From an uncultured delta proteobacterium (GTDB lineage: Bacteria; Desulfobacterota; Desulfomonilia; UBA1062), in contig CAVVYZ010000001.1 in assembly GCA_963752595.1 (NCBI GenBank), positions 192,001 through 256,000 on the forward strand: a stretch of DNA of 64,000 bases, read 5' to 3'. The notes below the pieces were generated by a model. That model ran no database searches, had not been told where the DNA came from, and was given only the letters and a program-made list of their open reading frames with translations. This document shows, piece after piece, positions 36,549 through 54,497 of this stretch. The translations under genes were made by a program, and so were the position numbers. Every line of letters starts with the position of its first letter. Position 1 is the stretch's first letter.

Positions 36549-37658
36549 ATGAATATCGGAGTCCCGAGAGAGATCAAGACGCGGGAGGGCAGAGTGGCCG
36601 TAACTCCGTCAGGGGTAGCGGCATTAAGAAGCCGGGGCCATCGGGTATATGTGGAAAACGGTGCAGGCCTGGGATCAGGGATGTCCGACAGTGCTTATGA
36701 AAAGGCAGGGGCGGTGATGGTTGCCGACCCGGATGCTCTATGGGGCTCCTCCGATATGATCGTCAAGGTCAAAGAGCCCATCCATGGAGAATTCGAGCGC
36801 ATGCACAAGGGGCAGATCCTGTTCACCTTCCTCCACCTTGCCGCATCCGTGGAACTCACCCGTGAGCTTCTCGAGCGCAAGGTTATCGGGATAGCCTATG
36901 AGACGATCCAGCTCGAAGACGGATCGCTCCCTCTGCTCGCCCCCATGAGCGCGGTTGCCGGCCGGCTCTCCATCCAGATGGGGTGCGCCTGCCTTGAGGC
37001 AAAAAACGGTGGAAAGGGAATACTGCTCTCGGGCGTGCCCGGAGTCCATCCGGCGAAAGTCGCGATCTTAGGCGCAGGGATATCCGGTCTCAACGCCGCA
37101 CACCTGGCCGTGGGCATGGGCGCACAGGTCTCTATCCTCGATATCAACCAGAAGCGCCTGAACTACATCGAGGATATTTTTCATTCCAGGATCATCACCC
37201 TCATGTCGAATCCCGAGAATGTTGAAAAGAGTGTCCGGGAGGCTGATCTCGTCATCGGGTCGGTGCTCATCCCCGGTGCACGGGCGCCGCATCTCATCAC
37301 GAGGGAGCTCTTAAGGGAAATGGAGCCGGGCTCAGCCATCGTGGATATCGCCATTGACCAGGGCGGATGCGCGGAGACGAGCAGGCCCACCACGCATGAT
37401 GATCCAACCTATATCGAAGAGGGCATTGTCCACTACTGCGTCACGAATATGCCCGGCGCAGTACCGCGCACCTCGACCTATGCGCTCGCCAACGGGACGT
37501 TTCCCTATGTGATGGAGCTTGCGGACAAGGGATGGGAGCGTGCCCTGCATGAAAACCGTGCCCTGGCAAAAGGCCTCAATGTATTGACAGGGAAGCTCAC
37601 GAACAGGAAGGTGGCCGAGGCCTTCGGATGGAAGGGCCTGGATTTCGAGGCTGTTTGA
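36549..37658 (+). CDS. ald: Alanine dehydrogenase
   Basis: IGVPREIK..EGRV, KVKEP, LHLA, PMS.VAG, DIAIDQGGC.ETS, NMPGAVPRTST. Confidence 0.96.
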   Translation: MNIGVPREIKTREGRVAVTPSGVAALRSRGHRVYVENGAGLGSGMSDSAYEKAGAVMVADPDALWGSSDMIVKVKEPIHGEFERMHKGQILFTFLHLAASVELTRELLERKVIGIAYETIQLEDGSLPLLAPMSAVAGRLSIQMGCACLEAKNGGKGILLSGVPGVHPAKVAILGAGISGLNAAHLAVGMGAQVSILDINQKRLNYIEDIFHSRIITLMSNPENVEKSVREADLVIGSVLIPGARAPHLITRELLREMEPGSAIVDIAIDQGGCAETSRPTTHDDPTYIEEGIVHYCVTNMPGAVPRTSTYALANGTFPYVMELADKGWERALHENRALAKGLNVLTGKLTNRKVAEAFGWKGLDFEAV

Positions 37659-37718: not shown

Positions 37719-39356
37719 ATGGAGGGCTGTAAGGATGTAGTATTTAAGAATGCTACGGTTTGGGCAGGCAACCCTATCAGGAAGGTTAAGGGGGGCATGA
37801 AGATAGCCGGGGGCAGAGTTGTTGAGATCTTCGAGAATGGACAACCCCCATGGGAGGCAGATCAATCCATCGACCTCAAAGGAATGCATGTCATCCCGGG
37901 GCTTATCGATGCACACCGGCACTTCTCTGCATATGCCCTGTTAGCCTGCTATGGTGATGCCGGTACATGGAGATCGAAGGCTGATGCGCTTGCTGCCATC
38001 GAGGCTGCATGCAGTGCGTCACGATCACCGGATGCATGGGTCTTCTTCTCGATGATGGATTATTCCAAGTGGAAGAAACCTTGCCCGCCATCGCTCAAGG
38101 AGATCGATGAGGTTGCACAGGGACGCCCGGTAGTTGTCGTCGACATTACCTTTCATCGCGGCATTGTATCATCGGAGGCAATCCGGAAGGTTGGGCTCGC
38201 GAGGAATACCCTGCGGCACGCAGGTGATGTGGAGGCCTCTTTTTCCGGCAAACCGAAGGGAATTATCTGGGAAGAGGCTCTCGGCAAGGTGCTGTTCAGC
38301 GTTTTCAGGGATATGCTGAAGATCCTGAGCAGGGAGGAGAAGATTAAACTCTTTCTCGACGAGGCCAAAAAGTGCCTTGCCATGGGTCTGACCCATGTGC
38401 ACGATCCCGGCATCCCCTCGGACATCCAGATGCTCCTGAACGATGCCCAGGGCAGCACGCCGTTGAAAATGAGCTGGTCGATAACGGGGAGTGAAAGCCT
38501 CTGCAGCCCTCCGGCCGGGGGGAATGAGCAAGGGGCCGTTCACTCGATTCATGCCCCGAAAAGCGTCAAGTTCTTCCTCGACGGCGCGCACCGTACCGCT
38601 GCGAGCATGCCTGTTATCGCCGGTCTCAAGGCAATGGTCCGTGCCGCGGCCGACAGCGTTTCCATGCTCGATACGCGCTCGCTCCGGCTTCTTTTCGAGC
38701 AGAAGATTATCTTACGGGGCAGCCGTCTGACCATGCCGTACTTGCGCTTTCCGGACACAGGAGATCTTATCCGGAGGGCCGCGTACTTTTCAGACAAGGG
38801 ATACCGGCTCGTGCTCCATGCACTGGGCAACGACGCTGTGCAGCAGGCGGCGACAGTGCTTAATACCATCAAACCGGCAGGTGGAGCATCGGTCGAGCAT
38901 CTGCTGGTCATGTCGGATAATGATCTGGATATATTTGCCGGCTGCGACGCAGTTGCATCCGTTCAGCCTGGATTCATACCGGTCTATGCGGATACCCTCG
39001 AGCGCCAGGGGGTGATTTCCTACATGAAGACCTTTGGGTTACGAAGCATGATCAGGAGGGGGATACCGGTCTGCATAAGCTCTGACGGGCCCTGTGGACC
39101 GGATGATCCCCTGTTCAATATCAGGAGGGCCGTGGATCGCAGGAAGCCTGACGGTTCCCGGCTCGATCCCGAAGAGTCAATCAGCCCGGAAGAGGCCCTT
39201 GCCGCCGCAACCATCGGGGGCAGCCTGTCCATGGGCAATGGAAATGAAGGCTTGAAGACGGGCGGTCCTGCACATTTCTGCATCGTAAGCGACGATCCGT
39301 TTTCAGATTCGAGCAGGGTAGTCCAGACCTGGATTGACGGGGTGAGGGCATATTGA
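37719..39356 (+). CDS. Metal-dependent amidohydrolase (YtcJ/NfdA-like, amidohydrolase 3)
   Basis: PGLIDAHRH, KFFLDG, HALG, EH, SSDGP, TWIDG. Confidence 0.87.
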   Translation: MEGCKDVVFKNATVWAGNPIRKVKGGMKIAGGRVVEIFENGQPPWEADQSIDLKGMHVIPGLIDAHRHFSAYALLACYGDAGTWRSKADALAAIEAACSASRSPDAWVFFSMMDYSKWKKPCPPSLKEIDEVAQGRPVVVVDITFHRGIVSSEAIRKVGLARNTLRHAGDVEASFSGKPKGIIWEEALGKVLFSVFRDMLKILSREEKIKLFLDEAKKCLAMGLTHVHDPGIPSDIQMLLNDAQGSTPLKMSWSITGSESLCSPPAGGNEQGAVHSIHAPKSVKFFLDGAHRTAASMPVIAGLKAMVRAAADSVSMLDTRSLRLLFEQKIILRGSRLTMPYLRFPDTGDLIRRAAYFSDKGYRLVLHALGNDAVQQAATVLNTIKPAGGASVEHLLVMSDNDLDIFAGCDAVASVQPGFIPVYADTLERQGVISYMKTFGLRSMIRRGIPVCISSDGPCGPDDPLFNIRRAVDRRKPDGSRLDPEESISPEEALAAATIGGSLSMGNGNEGLKTGGPAHFCIVSDDPFSDSSRVVQTWIDGVRAY

Positions 39357-39432: not shown

Positions 39433-40836
39433 ATGGAAGAAATGGGGTATCAGAAGATGGATGTCCAGGAGCGTGACTATATCCAGCACCTCTTCGGCAA
39501 GCACATTTCCAGAGGGCAGGTGCGGTACTTAAGGTGTGCGCACCTGGATATCTATGAATGCAACCGCAAGGGGTGCACGGTCACGGATGCGGTTTCGGGC
39601 AGGAAGTTCTTCGACTGCTTCAGCTCGGCAGGGTGCTTCAATGTGGGCAGGGGAAATCCCCGGATCATTAAGGCGCTCGAGCAGGCTCTGGACAGGTATG
39701 ACATGGGGTCTCACCAGATCCTCTCCGAACACAAGATCAGGTTTGCCGAGAAGCTCGCAAGCCTCTGCCCCGGGGATCTCAAGCGCGTGGTGCTCTGCGC
39801 GAGCGGTGCCGATGCATGCGCAGGGGCCATTAAGCTCGCCAAGGGCGCAACGGGGAGAAACGAAGTGATCACCATGGATAAGGCCTACCACGGGCACGAG
39901 GGGTTCAGCCTGTCAGCAAACGGCAAGGATTATTACAAGGAGCTGTTCCTGCCGCTGATGCCGGGCTTCCGCGTGGTTCCCTTCAACGATCTGGAAGCGG
40001 TGAGGAAGGCCGCATCGAAAGATACGGCAGCGATCATTCTGGAGCCGGTGCAGGGGGAGGGAGGCATCCACGTCGCTACGCAGGAATACATGAAGGGCTT
40101 GAGAAAGCTCTGCGACGATCTCGGCATCATGCTCATCTTTGACGAGGTGCAGACGGGATTCGGCAGGACCGGAAAGATGTGGTGCATGGAGCACTACGGC
40201 ATGATCCCTGATATCATGTTCACGGCCAAGTCCTTAAGCGGAGGCGTTTATCCCAACGGCGCCGTCGTTTACCGGGAAAGAGAGCCCCTGATGAGCTATG
40301 TCGAAGAAAACCCGGCCTTCCATACCTCCCATTCCGGAGGATCGGACCTCGGGTGCATCGTATCGTCTGAAGTCCTCGATTACATCGTGGAGAACAAGCT
40401 CTGGGATCATGCAGCCAAGGTCGGAAAGCGTTTCAAGGACGGACTCATGGAGATCGGGAGGCAGAACATCGGGATCGTCAAGGAAGTGCGCGGGCTCGGG
40501 CTCATGATCGGCATCGAGTACAAATATGAGTTCATCGGTGCACTTATGGCAGATTGCCTTGCGAGGCATGGTGTCTGGGCCGTGTACTCGGGCAACGCCC
40601 CTCAGGTCATGCGCTTCCAGATACCTGTCACGGCATCCATGGAGGAAGTGGAAGAGCTCCTGGGACGGATCAAGGCTGCCGTGAGCTCCATGAAACTGTA
40701 TCTCATCTTCCTCCTCCCTCTGGCAAAGGTGCCCCTGTTCAGGATGATCCTCGACAACCTGAAAGTTCAGATCCTGGCCTTTAATATCGTAAGAGATATC
40801 GAAGAGATCGTTTTCAAATATGTAGTGAGAAAGTAA
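39433..40836 (+). CDS. Class III aminotransferase, Lys-bearing subunit A
   Basis: SGA, AYHG, EPVQGEGG, DEVQTGFGRTG, AKSLSGG, RGLGLMIG. Confidence 0.92.
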   Translation: MEEMGYQKMDVQERDYIQHLFGKHISRGQVRYLRCAHLDIYECNRKGCTVTDAVSGRKFFDCFSSAGCFNVGRGNPRIIKALEQALDRYDMGSHQILSEHKIRFAEKLASLCPGDLKRVVLCASGADACAGAIKLAKGATGRNEVITMDKAYHGHEGFSLSANGKDYYKELFLPLMPGFRVVPFNDLEAVRKAASKDTAAIILEPVQGEGGIHVATQEYMKGLRKLCDDLGIMLIFDEVQTGFGRTGKMWCMEHYGMIPDIMFTAKSLSGGVYPNGAVVYREREPLMSYVEENPAFHTSHSGGSDLGCIVSSEVLDYIVENKLWDHAAKVGKRFKDGLMEIGRQNIGIVKEVRGLGLMIGIEYKYEFIGALMADCLARHGVWAVYSGNAPQVMRFQIPVTASMEEVEELLGRIKAAVSSMKLYLIFLLPLAKVPLFRMILDNLKVQILAFNIVRDIEEIVFKYVVRK

Positions 40837-40848
40837 GGAGGTGCGGAT

Positions 40849-42079
40849 ATGAAGTCAGCATCGATAACGCGGACGGATAAGGGCAGTCTCTTCGTGGCAG
40901 CTGAAAAGGTGTTTTCGAAAAGTCTGGTGAAGATGATTTCGGAGCAGGGCCATGATTTCCTCGAAGGGCTTCGGGAAGGTGCGTACGTATTCGATGAAAG
41001 CGGGAATCGCTATCTCGACTGCTACACCTCGGCAGGTACGTTCAATCTGGGCCGGAAGAACAGTACCATTGCTGCAAGCCTGAAAAAGGCCCTTTACGAG
41101 ACCGACCAGGGGAATTTCGTCATGCCCTCCCAGGAGAAAGCTCTCCTTGCCCGGAGGATCTGCCGGTTCATGCCGGGAAATCTCGATTGCGTCCTCTTCG
41201 GGGTGACGCGGGGTGAATCCATGGAAGCGGCGCTGAAGCTCGCCCGCGGGTTTACCGGCCACAGCGGGATCGTCACAGTGGACAGCGGCTGCTACGGCGA
41301 GAGCGGCTTTGCGCTTTCGGTCTCGGAAAGGAAAGGCAAGGAGCAGTTCGGTGCGCTCATCCCCGATGTCAGGGTTGTTCCCTTCGGCGATGTAGCGGCA
41401 GCAAGGTCCGCAGCGGAATCGAAGCCGGCGGCATTCGTCATGGAGCCGATCCAGGCCGAGAACCACTGCAGGACGGCTTCGAATGACTACTATGCCGAGG
41501 TCAGGAGCCCTGTGCGACCGGCATGGAATCAAGCTCATCTTCGACGAAACCCAGAGCGGGTTCGGCAGGACCGGGCGGAAATTCTTCTTCGAGCATACAG
41601 GTGCCGTGCCGGATATCCTGATCGTCGGCGAGGCCATAACCGGCGGTATATTCCCCATGACCGCGATTATATTTACGCGTGAGCTGAAAGCCTTCTTCGA
41701 TATGCATCCCCTCATACACCTGTGCACCTTCGGCGGCCATGACCTCGGCTGCCGGGTTGCCATGGAAGCCCTGGATGAGTATGACCGGCAATCGCCGTGG
41801 GATAATGCGCAGCTCCTTGGAGAGAAGCTCCTGAAAGATCTTAAGTCACTTGCAGGAAGAAATACTGCCCTTCGGTCGGTTTCGGGCAAAGGCCTCCTGA
41901 TTTCATTGAAACTCGAATCCAAAGAGGCTGCCCTGAACTTTTGCAGAAAGGCAAGGGAGAAAGGGCTCCTCGTGAATGCGGGAAAGATCGATGAATCGTG
42001 CGTCGTGCTCAGGCCGAGCCTCCTGATCGGCCAGGCGGAAGAAACGTTCATTGCGGATACGATCGCCGGGATCATCTGA
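40849..42079 (+). CDS. Class III aminotransferase-like subunit B lacking the PLP-binding Lys; 1-nt frameshift near 41506
   Basis: DETQSGFGRTG and CTFGG present; GEAITGG replaces AKxxxGG; removing one base in GTCAGGAGCCCTG fuses the ORFs. Confidence 0.82.
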
Positions 42080-42230: not shown

Positions 42231-42821
42231 ATGGCAAGGAAGTCCGTACGTGAAGAGCGGAAGAAGCAGATCCTGCAGGCGCTGGATCACTGCCTGCTTG
42301 AGAAGTCGTTCCATAAGACTTCCATAAAGGACATCTCCCGCATCGCGAAGGTCAATCACGGGGTGCTTCACTACTACTTCAAGAGCAAGGAGGACATCCT
42401 CCTGCACTATATCGATTACGTGGTCGATTACTTCAAGGGCCAGGTGCAGGAGATGCTGAAAGCACAGAATACGGAGCAGATGTCCCGGAAGGATTTCGTA
42501 AAAGAAGTGTTCAGCTTTGTAAATCAGAAGATAACGCTGGACAGGAATCTCTCGAAGATCTTTGTGGAGATCTGGGAAATAGCCCTTTACAACGATATCG
42601 TGCGCTCAAAGCTTAAAGAGGCATATAAGGAATGGATACAGATCCTGACGGGAAATATCGCCGCCGGGTCTGACGACAGCGAGACAGCTTCCATCCTGAG
42701 CATCGCCATGGTCGCTTTCTGGGAGGGCATGGCGCTGTTTTCCACCATATTCGACGAAAGGGAAATCGATTTCCAAGAAACGCTTGCCAGGTTCCAGCAG
42801 AGGATTCTCGAGATCCTGTAA
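42231..42821 (+). CDS. TetR/AcrR family transcriptional regulator
   Basis: TSIKDISRIAKVNHGVLHYYFKSKEDIL. Confidence 0.92.
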   Translation: MARKSVREERKKQILQALDHCLLEKSFHKTSIKDISRIAKVNHGVLHYYFKSKEDILLHYIDYVVDYFKGQVQEMLKAQNTEQMSRKDFVKEVFSFVNQKITLDRNLSKIFVEIWEIALYNDIVRSKLKEAYKEWIQILTGNIAAGSDDSETASILSIAMVAFWEGMALFSTIFDEREIDFQETLARFQQRILEIL

Positions 42822-43482: not shown

Positions 43483-43707
43483 CTATTTTCTCCTTTCTAT
43501 TATGGCTTCCTGAATGAAACCCTTGAATCCGAGCGCCGTGCCGATGACGAGCAGCACGAGGGTGAAATTAGGTGCCATGCCGGTGATTCTGTCCAGGTAC
43601 AATCCGAGGTAGAGGCCCAGGAAGGTCATGGTTACGAGCACGATGCTGTACCCGCTGATCCTCGTGAGCCTGTTGGCCAGCTTCCGTTGGATTTCTATTT
43701 TTTTCAT
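43483..43707 (-). CDS. AtpZ/AtpI-like small membrane protein
   Basis: LGLYLGLYLD.....P.FTL.LL.IG...GF; SD AAGGAGG. Confidence 0.75.
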   Translation of the reverse strand: MKKIEIQRKLANRLTRISGYSIVLVTMTFLGLYLGLYLDRITGMAPNFTLVLLVIGTALGFKGFIQEAIIERRK

Positions 43708-43736: not shown

Positions 43737-43913
43737 TTAGAACAAGCTCATCAGAATTTCGCGTGCCGGAGCGGTGTTGATCCCAACCAGGGTAACCACG
43801 AGGATGAAAATCGCAACAGCCTCAGCCGGGGTGATCCCGAGCACCTTGTACGTGAACCTGATCCCGATCCCTGTCATGAACATGCATCCTATTACGATCC
43901 ACAATGTAATCAT
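43737..43913 (-). CDS. 58-aa two-TM membrane protein, absent from the ORF track
   Basis: MITLWIVIGCMFMTGIGIRFTYKVLGITPAEAVAIFILVVTLVGINTAPAREILMSLF; SD AAGGAGG. Confidence 0.75.
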   Translation of the reverse strand: MITLWIVIGCMFMTGIGIRFTYKVLGITPAEAVAIFILVVTLVGINTAPAREILMSLF

Positions 43914-47906: not shown

Positions 47907-49210
47907 CTAGATCAGAGGGACGATATTGGCTTTGCTTCCATTAAGCTTTGCAGCGATGAACAGCGCAACGGAGCGCACCAGGTCCACCTTCGACAGCATA
48001 AGCGGAAGGATCCCCATATGCCTGCACAGGCCGTGGACGGTCAGTGCCAGGTCGTTGCAACCCGGGCTCATGGTCACATTGCGCTTGCCCAGGCGCGCCT
48101 GGAGGGCTACACCGTGCTCCTGGACGGCGCAGCTTCCGGCGATATGCACCTTGCCTTTGATCCGGTCCACCTCCTGCTGTCGATGCCCTTGCCCATGAGG
48201 ATCGTGAAACCGCCTTTCCCGGAATGGTCGCGGTAGAGCATCTCCACCACGGTTTCTGTGTTGCGGCGGCAGCCCTCGTGGCAGCATCGCTCCTTGCCCC
48301 TGAGGAAGGTAAGGTCCGGCGGGTAGTCGTCGAGAAGTTCAAAGGTGAGCCTGGTTTTGCGCTCCTCGAAGAGGGACCTGTTGACGATGTCGATGAGGGT
48401 CTGATCGCCGATGCCGATTCCGGTGGCGCGGCAGAGATCCAGGTGCGTGACCTCCTCCGGATCGAAGCCTATGAGGGAAGCTGCCGTCACATCCGTGGCC
48501 AGCGGATCCGATCCGCCGATGAGGAGGTTCATAGGCACCACGCACTTGTCGGCATTGTACGTCGTGGGATAGTGGCCGTGGGTGGTGGCGATAAGACCGT
48601 CGATCAGGGCGAAATGCGGCCGCAGCACGCGGTAGATGTCCGCGAATTTCTGGTGGAGGCGGTAGTTGTGGTCTGCAATGCGGCTTTTCTGGTGCACGAG
48701 GCCGAACTGATTCTTGATGGACAGGGACACCTGGGACATGGAATGGGTCTTGAGCTTGGGCAGGGAGAGATAGAAGTTTTCATCGCCCCGTTCGATGATC
48801 CGTTCGAACACGAAGCGCGAGATGTCGATGAATTCCTCGATGCCCTCCAGGAAGATCGGAACGGCCGGGGTCTCGTCCAGATAGACCGGGACGGCGCCCG
48901 TTTCCCTGCAGACCTTAAGATACCCGGTGGCATGAAAAACCAGGCGCGTGAAGTTGGCCTGGGTGCAGTTCTCCATGACATAGACCGTGCGGGCCCCATT
49001 CTTACGGAAGTAGTCGATCGTTTCCCGGAGCACATCCGGGTCGGTATACACGTTGGCCTCGGGACCCACACCGTTAACCTTGATGTATACGTCCCGGCTG
49101 GAACGAAGGAGCTTCTTGCCGCCGCCGAAATGCTCGAAGACCTCGCTCACCGCGGTTGCGATGCCAGCCTTCGTGTCCGCCATGATGACCTGTGCCCTTG
49201 CGTTATCCAT
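47907..49210 (-). CDS. DUF362 family protein; frameshift near 48177
   Basis: IK.N, YTDP.V, PKLKTH, SLSIKNQFG, D..A.D; C-terminal GSCA...PGC in the adjacent frame. Confidence 0.8.
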
Positions 49211-49316
49211 GTGCGCCTCCTTGTTTCCGACCATCTATGGTTTCCCTGCCAGGGTCTCCTCTATCAATTGATCCTAGTGCACATCAGCACCCTGCAATTG
49301 TGAAGGAAGGACTCGC

Positions 49317-52867: not shown

Positions 52868-54497
52868 TTATCTTCCTTCCCTGATGGCTGCGATATCGCC
52901 TGCAACGTCACCAATGGGCTTGATGTCGAAGGTATCGACGAGCACCTTTGCGACGTTCGGCGAGAGGAAGCCGGGGAGCGTTGGTCCGAGGCGGATGTGC
53001 TTGACGCCCAGAGACAGCAGGGCCAGCAGCACGGCCACGGCCTTCTGCTCGTACCACCCGATGTTAAAGGAGATGGGCAGGTCGTTGATGTCTTCGAGGC
53101 CGAAGACCTCCTTGAGCTTCAGGGCGATGACCGCAAGCGAATAGGAGTCGTTGCACTGGCCTGCATCGAGCACCCGGGGGATGCCGCCGATGTCGCCCGG
53201 ATTGAGCTTGTTGTAGCGGTACTTGGCGCAGCCCGGCGGTAAGGATGACCGTATCTTCCGGCAGGTCTTCCGCCACTTCGGTGAAGTAGCTCCGGGCCTT
53301 GAACCTGCCGTCGCAGCCGGCCATGACCACGAAGCGCTTGATGGCGCCGCTCTTGACCGCCTCCACGACCTTGTCCGCCAGCTTCATGACCTGGTCATGG
53401 GCAAAGCCGCCGACGATCTCGCCCCGTTCGATCTCCACAGGGGGGCGGACTGCTTCGCCAGCGCGATGATCTCCGAGAAGTCCTTTGGTCTTGCCGTCCG
53501 CAGGCTCCGGGATGTGCTTTACGCCGGGGTATCCCACCTGGCCGGTGGTGAAGATGCGGTCCTTGTAGGAATCCTTCGGCGGGATGATGCAGTTTGTCGT
53601 CATGAGGATCGGTCCGCCGAACTGCTCGAACTCTTCGTTCTGCTTCCACCAGGCGTTGCCGTAGTTGCCGACAGATGATCGTATTTCTTGAAGGCCGGGT
53701 AATAATTGGCCGGCAGCATTTCGCTGTGGGTGTAGACATCGACGCCTGTACCGTCGGTCTGCTTCAGGAGCTCTTCCAAGTCTTTCAGATCGTGGCCGGA
53801 AATAAGAATGCCCGGGTTCCCGCGCACGCCGATGTTCACCTTCGTGATTTCGGGTTTGCCGTAGGTTTCGGTATTGGCCTTGTCGAGCAGGGCCATGGTC
53901 TGTCACTGCCGTCCGGCCGCACTCCATGACCAGGCCGACGAGTTCGTCTGAGCCTAAGTCCTTTGTCGTAGCTTCGAGTCCTTTGAACAGGAACTCATAG
54001 ATCGCCGGGTCCTCATAACCGAGGATGGATGCGTGGTCTGCATAGGCGGACACGCCCTTGAGGCCGAAGATGAGCAGCGAACGTAAAGAGCGGACGTCCT
54101 CATTCTCCGTGGAAAGGATGCCCACCGAGAGAGCTTTCTGCCTGAACTCGTTCTCGTCATCCGAGAACCACACGGAAGCATCGGGCGCGGTAATGTTCAA
54201 GCCCGCCGATTTCTTCAGCCCCTCTTTAAGCTTCAGAGATTCCCGGATCAGGTCAATGATCCTCTCGCTGTTGAAATTCACATTCGTAATGGTTGCGAAC
54301 ATGGCCCGGATCGTGAACCGGCCGAGCTCTTTAATATCAGCCTTTCCTTTTGCCCGGTTTACGCAGACAGCCAATCCTTTGAGCGTAAACAGGAGCAGAT
54401 CCTGAAGATTGGCGGTATCCTCTGTTTTTCCACAAACCCCCTTTACGGTGCAGCAGGAATTTTTGGCTGTTTCCTGGCATTGGTGACAGAACATCAT
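52868..54497 (-). CDS. hcp: Hybrid cluster protein (hydroxylamine/NO reductase), with several 1-nt frameshifts
   Basis: [54 protein letters not shown] spread over three frames. Confidence 0.92.

Follow-up and report, generated by a model that had tools for sequence, protein, structure and literature searches.

The window, by which we mean the whole 64 kb stretch of DNA analysed, carries on its plus strand two tandem genes of the class III aminotransferase type. Gene A (positions 39433–40836) encodes a 467-residue protein, the putative catalytic subunit, assigned from its Pfam match, its homologues and an AF2 monomer model. Gene B (40849–42079) starts 12 bases past the stop codon of A, which is overlapped by a Shine–Dalgarno-like AGGAGG, and encodes a partner subunit without the Schiff-base lysine (409 residues in relatives); here the assignment draws on the sequence, homologues and the AF2 model of an orthologue. 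A matches PF00202 (Aminotran_3) with 298.9 bits against a curated cutoff of 30.5, and the two parts in which B is found score 71.9 and 125.4 bits over profile positions 17–217 and 219–400. The model of A compares with Escherichia coli YgjG (PDB entry 4uox) at a TM score of 0.83 and that of the intact B orthologue from genome G004 at 0.92–0.93. Both chains therefore combine a profile match above the cutoff with a YgjG-like predicted monomer fold. Putrescine aminotransferase is the best NCBIfam model for A, and among the models listed neither A nor B reaches a cutoff; the PatA/YgjG models NF008570 and TIGR03372 give A 315.4 bits (cutoff 612) and 271.6 bits (cutoff 658.65), respectively.

The own-site motifs of A read SGA, AYHG, EPVQGEGG and DEVQ, and its Lys266 is encoded by AAG at 40228. 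The loop that would be donated to the other subunit has decayed to HTSHSGG (40321–40341, from the sequence and homologue columns), with His300 aligned to Thr332 of YgjG. In B the own-site motifs are altered to TRGES, GCYG and EPIQAENH. Arg121 (CGG, 41209–41211) takes the place of YgjG Gly150 in the phosphate cup, and a glutamate (GAG, 41630–41632) stands at the Schiff-base lysine position, the latter placed from the sequence and homologue columns, as is the conserved donor loop HLCTFGG (41717–41737, Thr codon 41726–41728). The initial annotation had read the motifs, the lysine, the glutamate and both loops from the translations, and all are found where it put them.

As assembled, B contains a +1 frameshift, one extra base in a CCC run at 41508–41510, recognized by comparison with relatives. 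This is probably an assembly error, to judge from the intact B genes of relatives, the equal dN/dS across the break and other shifted loci in the same genome. Complete and intact, B neighbours A in 17 of the 19 A-bearing genomes among 60 related genomes searched; of the other two, one has a B truncated where its contig stops and the other an A located at a contig end. Compared with its G004 orthologue, B has a dN/dS of 0.17 ahead of the break and 0.18 past it, and five of 30 tested loci of the window's genome are frameshifted relative to the genes of relatives. The frameshift is present in the assembly, as it would be in a real, very recent pseudogene that left the system broken in this organism though working in its relatives, but that reading is improbable given the 17 intact genes, the even dN/dS, the frequency of shifted loci and the homopolymer in which the extra base sits. 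Contigs from four DNA runs with small shares of this genome were placed on B; they do not bridge 41506–41510 or cover 41630. Decay of the family as a whole was rejected because the best B homologues are single intact ORFs and dN/dS is about 0.17. Elsewhere in the window, a hybrid-cluster-protein-like gene (label read from the translation; 52868–54497, minus strand) is broken over several frames and a DUF362 gene (48107–49234, minus strand) appears to be shifted near its end; both fit an indel-prone assembly.

Gene A ends in an A-specific extension (approximately residues 421–467; 40693–40833, plus strand), helical and amphipathic as judged by the model, hydropathy and relatives. Past the core there are 47–61 residues in 30 of 31 genome-derived A proteins, against 10–36 in 19 single-gene relatives. 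The best 19-residue Kyte–Doolittle mean is 1.9 in the window A, with a median of 1.35 for homologues and values of at least 1.6 in 28 of 116. A hydrophobic tail that might bind membranes had been suggested; the extension is real, but it is amphipathic and holds no conserved transmembrane helix. A transmembrane anchor was rejected since the hydropathy is weak and variable, and since A–B fusion proteins (see below) run on past the tail into B.

Complementary active sites

Three residues of YgjG bind the phosphate of PLP: Gly150, Thr151 and, from the other subunit, Thr332 (PMC4244111, in excerpt). Using YgjG numbering, we compared 34 A/B pairs (from 31 genomes and three fusion proteins) with 19 single-gene or two-lysine relatives, here called S1. 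Column 300 is Lys in all 34 A and all 19 S1 sequences and Glu in all 34 B; column 150 is Gly in every A and Arg in every B. Tyr180, His181, Glu243, Asp271 and Gln274 are each present in 34 of 34 A, and Arg426 in 33; B has Arg426 in none, shows W, C, S, Y, L or F at the ring-stacking residue 180, and retains Glu238, Glu243 and Asp271 throughout and Gln274 in 27 of 34. Thr332 follows the opposite course, being present in all B and all S1 sequences and in only four of 34 A. Likewise, column 119 is Phe in every B and S1 sequence and variable in A. The lysine, the aspartate to the pyridine nitrogen and the glycine of the phosphate cup, which a canonical class III enzyme has on each chain, thus all occur in A (34/34), while B keeps the aspartate; the donated threonine loop, also canonical on each chain, is found in B and has been lost from all but four A.

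The same holds for larger sets. Across A and the best 120 of its 2516 homologues the Lys266 column is Lys in 121 of 121, and the Thr332 column is never Thr (0/121), with His, Ser, Phe, Leu, Tyr and others instead. Among the best 120 of 415 B homologues, all 120 have Glu at the lysine column and 119 retain the loop Thr. A single sequencing error at 41630 is rejected on the first of these B counts, which also answers, for these best homologues, the worry that homologues of B might carry lysine; all four bear out the argument of the initial annotation for coordinated changes. It had further predicted that lysine loss in B would accompany TFGG loss in A, and loop decay in A is seen in every typed pair. 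Two features go beyond it: the invariant Gly-to-Arg replacement in the B phosphate cup, and a second donated loop with the same reciprocal pattern. For this loop, residues 114–123, we infer donation in trans; the YgjG paper, in the excerpt available, lists Gln119 without an other-subunit mark (PMC4244111).

B is the faster-evolving chain (entropy over the entire chain 1.45 bits, against 1.03 in A). Across the 34 pairs, apart from one own-site segment given below, the donated loops are the only two segments with more variation in A than in B (1.52 versus 0.40 bits and 1.23 versus 0.49 bits). Own-site segments vary more in B, namely 88–94 (0.24 in A versus 1.64 in B), 179–184 (0.35 versus 1.27) and 415–428 (0.18 versus 1.72). 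One own-site segment, 148–152, breaks the pattern (0.78 in A versus 0.43 in B) because the Arg-Gly of B is invariant.

On these sequence patterns we consider it likely that A and B form an obligate heterodimer with one PLP site. A, which has the catalytic lysine, would hold the sole pyridoxal phosphate, and the two conserved loops of B would complete the site. The pocket of B itself would be dead, probably plugged by two invariant residues, the Arg at Gly150 and the Glu at Lys300. Apart from segment 148–152 and the lysine kept by the distant B-like P0284 (see below), two observations count against this arrangement: Thr occupies the loop column in four of 34 A, and the Ser or Thr at position 331, one place before it (32/34 A), might serve an AA dimer; and B keeps Glu238, Glu243, Asp271 and Gln274 beyond the need of a fully dead pocket.

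The first of these observations would suit a homodimer of A with a re-registered loop, for which A has kept His329, Ser/Thr331 and the Gly-Gly of the loop. B would then be a separate pseudo-enzyme that regulates, stabilizes or channels without completing the site, for example by docking the Zn dehydrogenase that follows it at nine of the 30 loci and, in the Hydrogenedentota phylum, at 17 of 18. We regard this as quite unlikely, since no active-site segments are under weaker constraint in A, or under stronger constraint in B, than the two donor loops, conservation of B is just as high in the absence of the Zn dehydrogenase, and there are 1:1 A–B fusions in which B has lost its own N-terminus. 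The invariant charged set Arg121, Glu199, Glu204, Asp232 and Glu261 of B might instead point to a living B pocket. This would accommodate an effector, or PMP or PLP with no Schiff base formed, and would carry out a second reaction or control A. ColD/E1 are lysine-free PMP enzymes and provide a precedent. This is slightly less probable still: the phosphate site would be taken up by the Arg at Gly150, residue 180, which should stack on the ring, varies, Arg426 is lost, and the A loops that would line the B pocket are variable. The initial annotation held that only an A/B dimer forms a full site; the loop reciprocity, the intact B homologues and the fusions support this. That the two chains physically pair, and that A is inactive by itself, we infer from sequence.

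Distribution, fusions and ancestry

A and B are adjacent or fused in 49 of the 52 genomes with A or B, and the remaining three cases lie at contig ends; these counts come from few candidates scored per genome, with each search stronger on one chain and with kin that are not independent. Within the window's phylum (401 genomes) a mixed profile matched 28, and motifs were typed for 30 loci. There the B profile found five B genes, each beside an A; its other eight matches are S1 genes, and it missed the broken B of the window. Among 301 genomes of the Myxococcota (the phylum of locus L002) A occurs in 12, with B adjacent in 11 and both at contig ends in one. Of 135 genomes of Ca. Hydrogenedentota (the phylum of L070), 18 have B, which is adjacent to A in 16, fused in one and cut by a contig end in one. 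Further sources by name are Spirochaetes, Smithella, Desulfomonilia and Desulfosudis oleivorans. The B profile found nothing in the 301 genomes of Chloroflexi (the phylum of G451) searched, a related-locus search with generic patterns gave the A/B subfamily at seven of 160 loci, and the ESM Atlas returned generic Aminotran_3 clusters only. The A/B pair is a real, conserved family trait across several bacterial phyla. The trees of A and B share 14 of 31 splits (0.2 when shuffled), with an identity correlation of 0.91; such congruence signifies co-inheritance only, as for any adjacent genes.

Five longer proteins match the B profile and three of them are A-then-B fusions: P0245 (851 residues, two members), P0246 (854 residues, 11 members) and P0247 (906 residues, one member). 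P0246 is a single open frame in the DNA of genome G843. The B half of P0245 and P0246 begins at profile position 56, the first 55 or so positions having gone, which a read-through error would not produce. P0247 has a complete B half and stands apart in quick trees (supports not printed), from which two fusion events are likely. Another long protein, P0249, joins a lysine-containing class III aminotransferase to an NAD-binding reductase-like domain (label read from the sequence) and is unrelated to these fusions. The opposite half-site losses, the joint inheritance over phyla and the occasional fusion together make a two-subunit, single-site enzyme likely.

In a quick maximum-likelihood tree of 59 proteins, A (17 sequences) and B (13) are each split off by a branch with 100% SH-aLRT support and a long stem. 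Both group with the S1 genes and are separated from S2 and the PatA/ArgD outgroup (99%), and the tree leaves open whether A and B are sisters. The pair may have arisen by duplication of a homodimeric single gene of the S1 type, which neighbours it in the tree. Among the best 150 representatives at 50% identity, glutamate-type B sequences make up the top seven plus two fragments, and 136 have Lys.

Several more distant relatives were seen. In the class III proteins P0297, P0298 and P0304, which may be an independent dead-partner lineage, Arg or His replaces the lysine and the HxSTFGG loop is intact; P0284 is a distant B-like representative that has the Arg150 of B yet keeps the lysine, and is a possible intermediate. 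A sister layout of S1, SCP2, S2 and an APC permease occurs at L006:5009–9359 and at L197–L202, L207, L209, L216 and L218–L220, with Lys in both aminotransferases, an S2 loop of IINSFGG (Ser for Thr) and a match to family f14 in ten of ten genomes; S1 and S2 may pair as a heterodimer with two sites or may each work as an enzyme of their own. The window's genome also has a further class III paralogue, beside a DUF6206 gene (L275:7295–8563; G000 C8:33315–34547).

Comparison with known systems

The one-site design has precedents in other PLP families, in SerTA and SPT, and for class III we found none described. SerTA (Ser4/Ser5) of Serratia sp. ATCC 39006 has one active site per heterodimer, as established by structure and mutants, and was called the first heterooligomeric aminotransferase studied in a 2024 paper (PMC11726168, in excerpt). 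Like the proposed A/B enzyme, it is a fold type I aminotransferase encoded by tandem genes, with a lysine-less chain supplying phosphate-binding residues. It differs in being biosynthetic and carrier-protein linked, and in that Ser4 is truncated (24.6 kDa) whereas B is of full length with Glu and Arg substitutions (PMC11726168, in excerpt). SerTA also belongs to the sugar-aminotransferase family, while A and B match PF00202 only, and it is absent from the PDB matches listed for A or B; the available portion of its paper nowhere mentions 'class III' (PMC11726168).

Eukaryotic SPT1/SPT2 resembles the proposed A/B enzyme as a heterodimer from a homodimeric fold I ancestor with Lys on one chain, a presumed single site and own-site residues missing from the partner chain. 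Unlike A/B, it is a membrane-anchored eukaryotic enzyme of the alpha-oxoamine synthase family that performs a decarboxylative condensation (PMC6148460, in excerpt). With both systems A/B shares two paralogous chains with Lys on one, retention of the residues used in trans, and co-inheritance or fusion of the chains. The two-subunit glycine decarboxylase GcvPA/GcvPB is also a bacterial alpha/beta fold I PLP enzyme with Lys on one chain and fused forms elsewhere; it differs from A/B as a decarboxylase of another family.

Among solved structures, YgjG/PatA (4uox), a class III enzyme, is the nearest to both chains in sequence as well as in predicted fold, and its cofactor residues are the same in A; unlike the arrangement proposed for A/B, it is a homodimer with two sites (PMC4244111, in excerpt). 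The transaminase domains of PigE and TamH (4ppm; PMC9594044, in excerpt) are class III and near A, with PigE the second-best model for A (308 bits, cutoff 850). They differ from the proposed A/B enzyme as homodimeric multi-domain biosynthetic enzymes with Lys intact. TamH turns a C12 aldehyde into a C12 amine (PMC9594044, in excerpt), so substrates resembling lipids are found near the A/B branch. A heteromeric class III aminotransferase was not found in the literature searched, namely that outside subscription-only papers and supplements.

Gene neighbourhood, substrate and significance

Upstream of A and on the same strand lie an alanine dehydrogenase (36549–37658; TIGR00518, 535.8 bits, cutoff 391.85), likely in the same operon, and, directly adjacent, an amidohydrolase family 3 protein (37719–39356; PF07969, E = 2.4e-46). 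B is followed on the plus strand by a TetR-family regulator (42231–42821; PF00440). Downstream of the TetR gene are two small hydrophobic ORFs on the minus strand (43483–43707 and 43737–43913). Within 6.5 kb of A, the 30 loci contain a TetR gene in 12 cases, alanine dehydrogenase in ten, the Zn dehydrogenase in nine, the amidohydrolase 3 orthologue in six, another amidohydrolase in two, an amidase in three and a XylR_N regulator in two. The Zn and alanine dehydrogenases never occur together. The Zn dehydrogenase (L194:667–1878 and orthologues) keeps its catalytic and structural zinc ligands, has an N-terminal hydrophobic insertion and reaches no NCBIfam cutoff. SCP2 is near nine of ten S1 loci versus none of the 30 A/B loci, and the amphipathic tail is confined to A. 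In the window a promoter and terminator scan stayed at chance level (4 versus 4.6 and 6 versus 6.2), and no tRNA was found within the 64 kb.

The entrance and substrate residues Phe91, Gln119, Lys183, Leu419 and Phe327 of YgjG are absent, with Ala, Phe (from B), His, Gly and Leu or Met (from B) instead; in A the changes are Phe91 to Ala in 32 of 34, Leu419 to Gly in 33 and Lys183 to His in all 34. The His at 183, the Phe at 119 of the donor chain and the small residues at 91 and 419 suggest an uncharged, bulky amine. A retains the Glu243–Arg426 pair, associated in YgjG with the half-reaction of the keto acid (PMC4244111, in excerpt). We tentatively propose that the enzyme transaminates a primary amine that is uncharged and either bulky or hydrophobic. 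The amidohydrolase would free the amine, pyruvate would accept the nitrogen, and the products would be handled by alanine dehydrogenase in the window or by a Zn alcohol dehydrogenase in other lineages. That the neighbours differ by lineage counts against fixing the substrate, and our literature search found nothing on it.

There is a sizeable, if lesser, chance that the heterodimer is real but has a diamine, polyamine or amino alcohol as its substrate, or works as a lyase or racemase. The best family and structure match is putrescine aminotransferase, saccharopine-dehydrogenase-like or Orn/Arg-decarboxylase-family genes in a few loci are polyamine pointers, and two S1/S2 loci have split transketolase genes nearby. 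However, Phe replaces Gln119, the residue that binds the distal amine, smaller side chains have replaced Phe91 and Leu419 at the entrance, A scores about 315 bits where PatA requires 612, and the keto-acid switch is kept in A with alanine dehydrogenase adjacent.

Textbooks describe class III (omega) transaminases as homodimers, and the enzymes are in wide use as biocatalysts. If our reading is true, A/B is a class III heterooligomeric aminotransferase, both halves of which are labelled 'putrescine aminotransferase' in databases, though B cannot form a Schiff base. A wider scenario is speculative and, taken whole, rather unlikely: a class III lineage in at least four phyla would have passed from a homodimer to a one-site heterodimer with a self-plugged pseudo-site, where invariant Arg and Glu stand in the cofactor's stead, and been fused probably twice; the SCP2 lipid carrier of its relatives would have been swapped for a built-in amphipathic tail, and lipid-like amines would be deaminated in anaerobes, with homodimer, two-lysine pair, heterodimer and fusion all surviving. 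The solo gene, duplicated pair, complementary pair and fusion would form a testable natural series for how obligate heteromers and pseudo-enzymes arise. A/B would also offer a natural asymmetric or single-chain transaminase scaffold, the halves of which can be changed independently, and its substrate would define an unassigned amine-use pathway in bacteria of anaerobic sediments and digesters.
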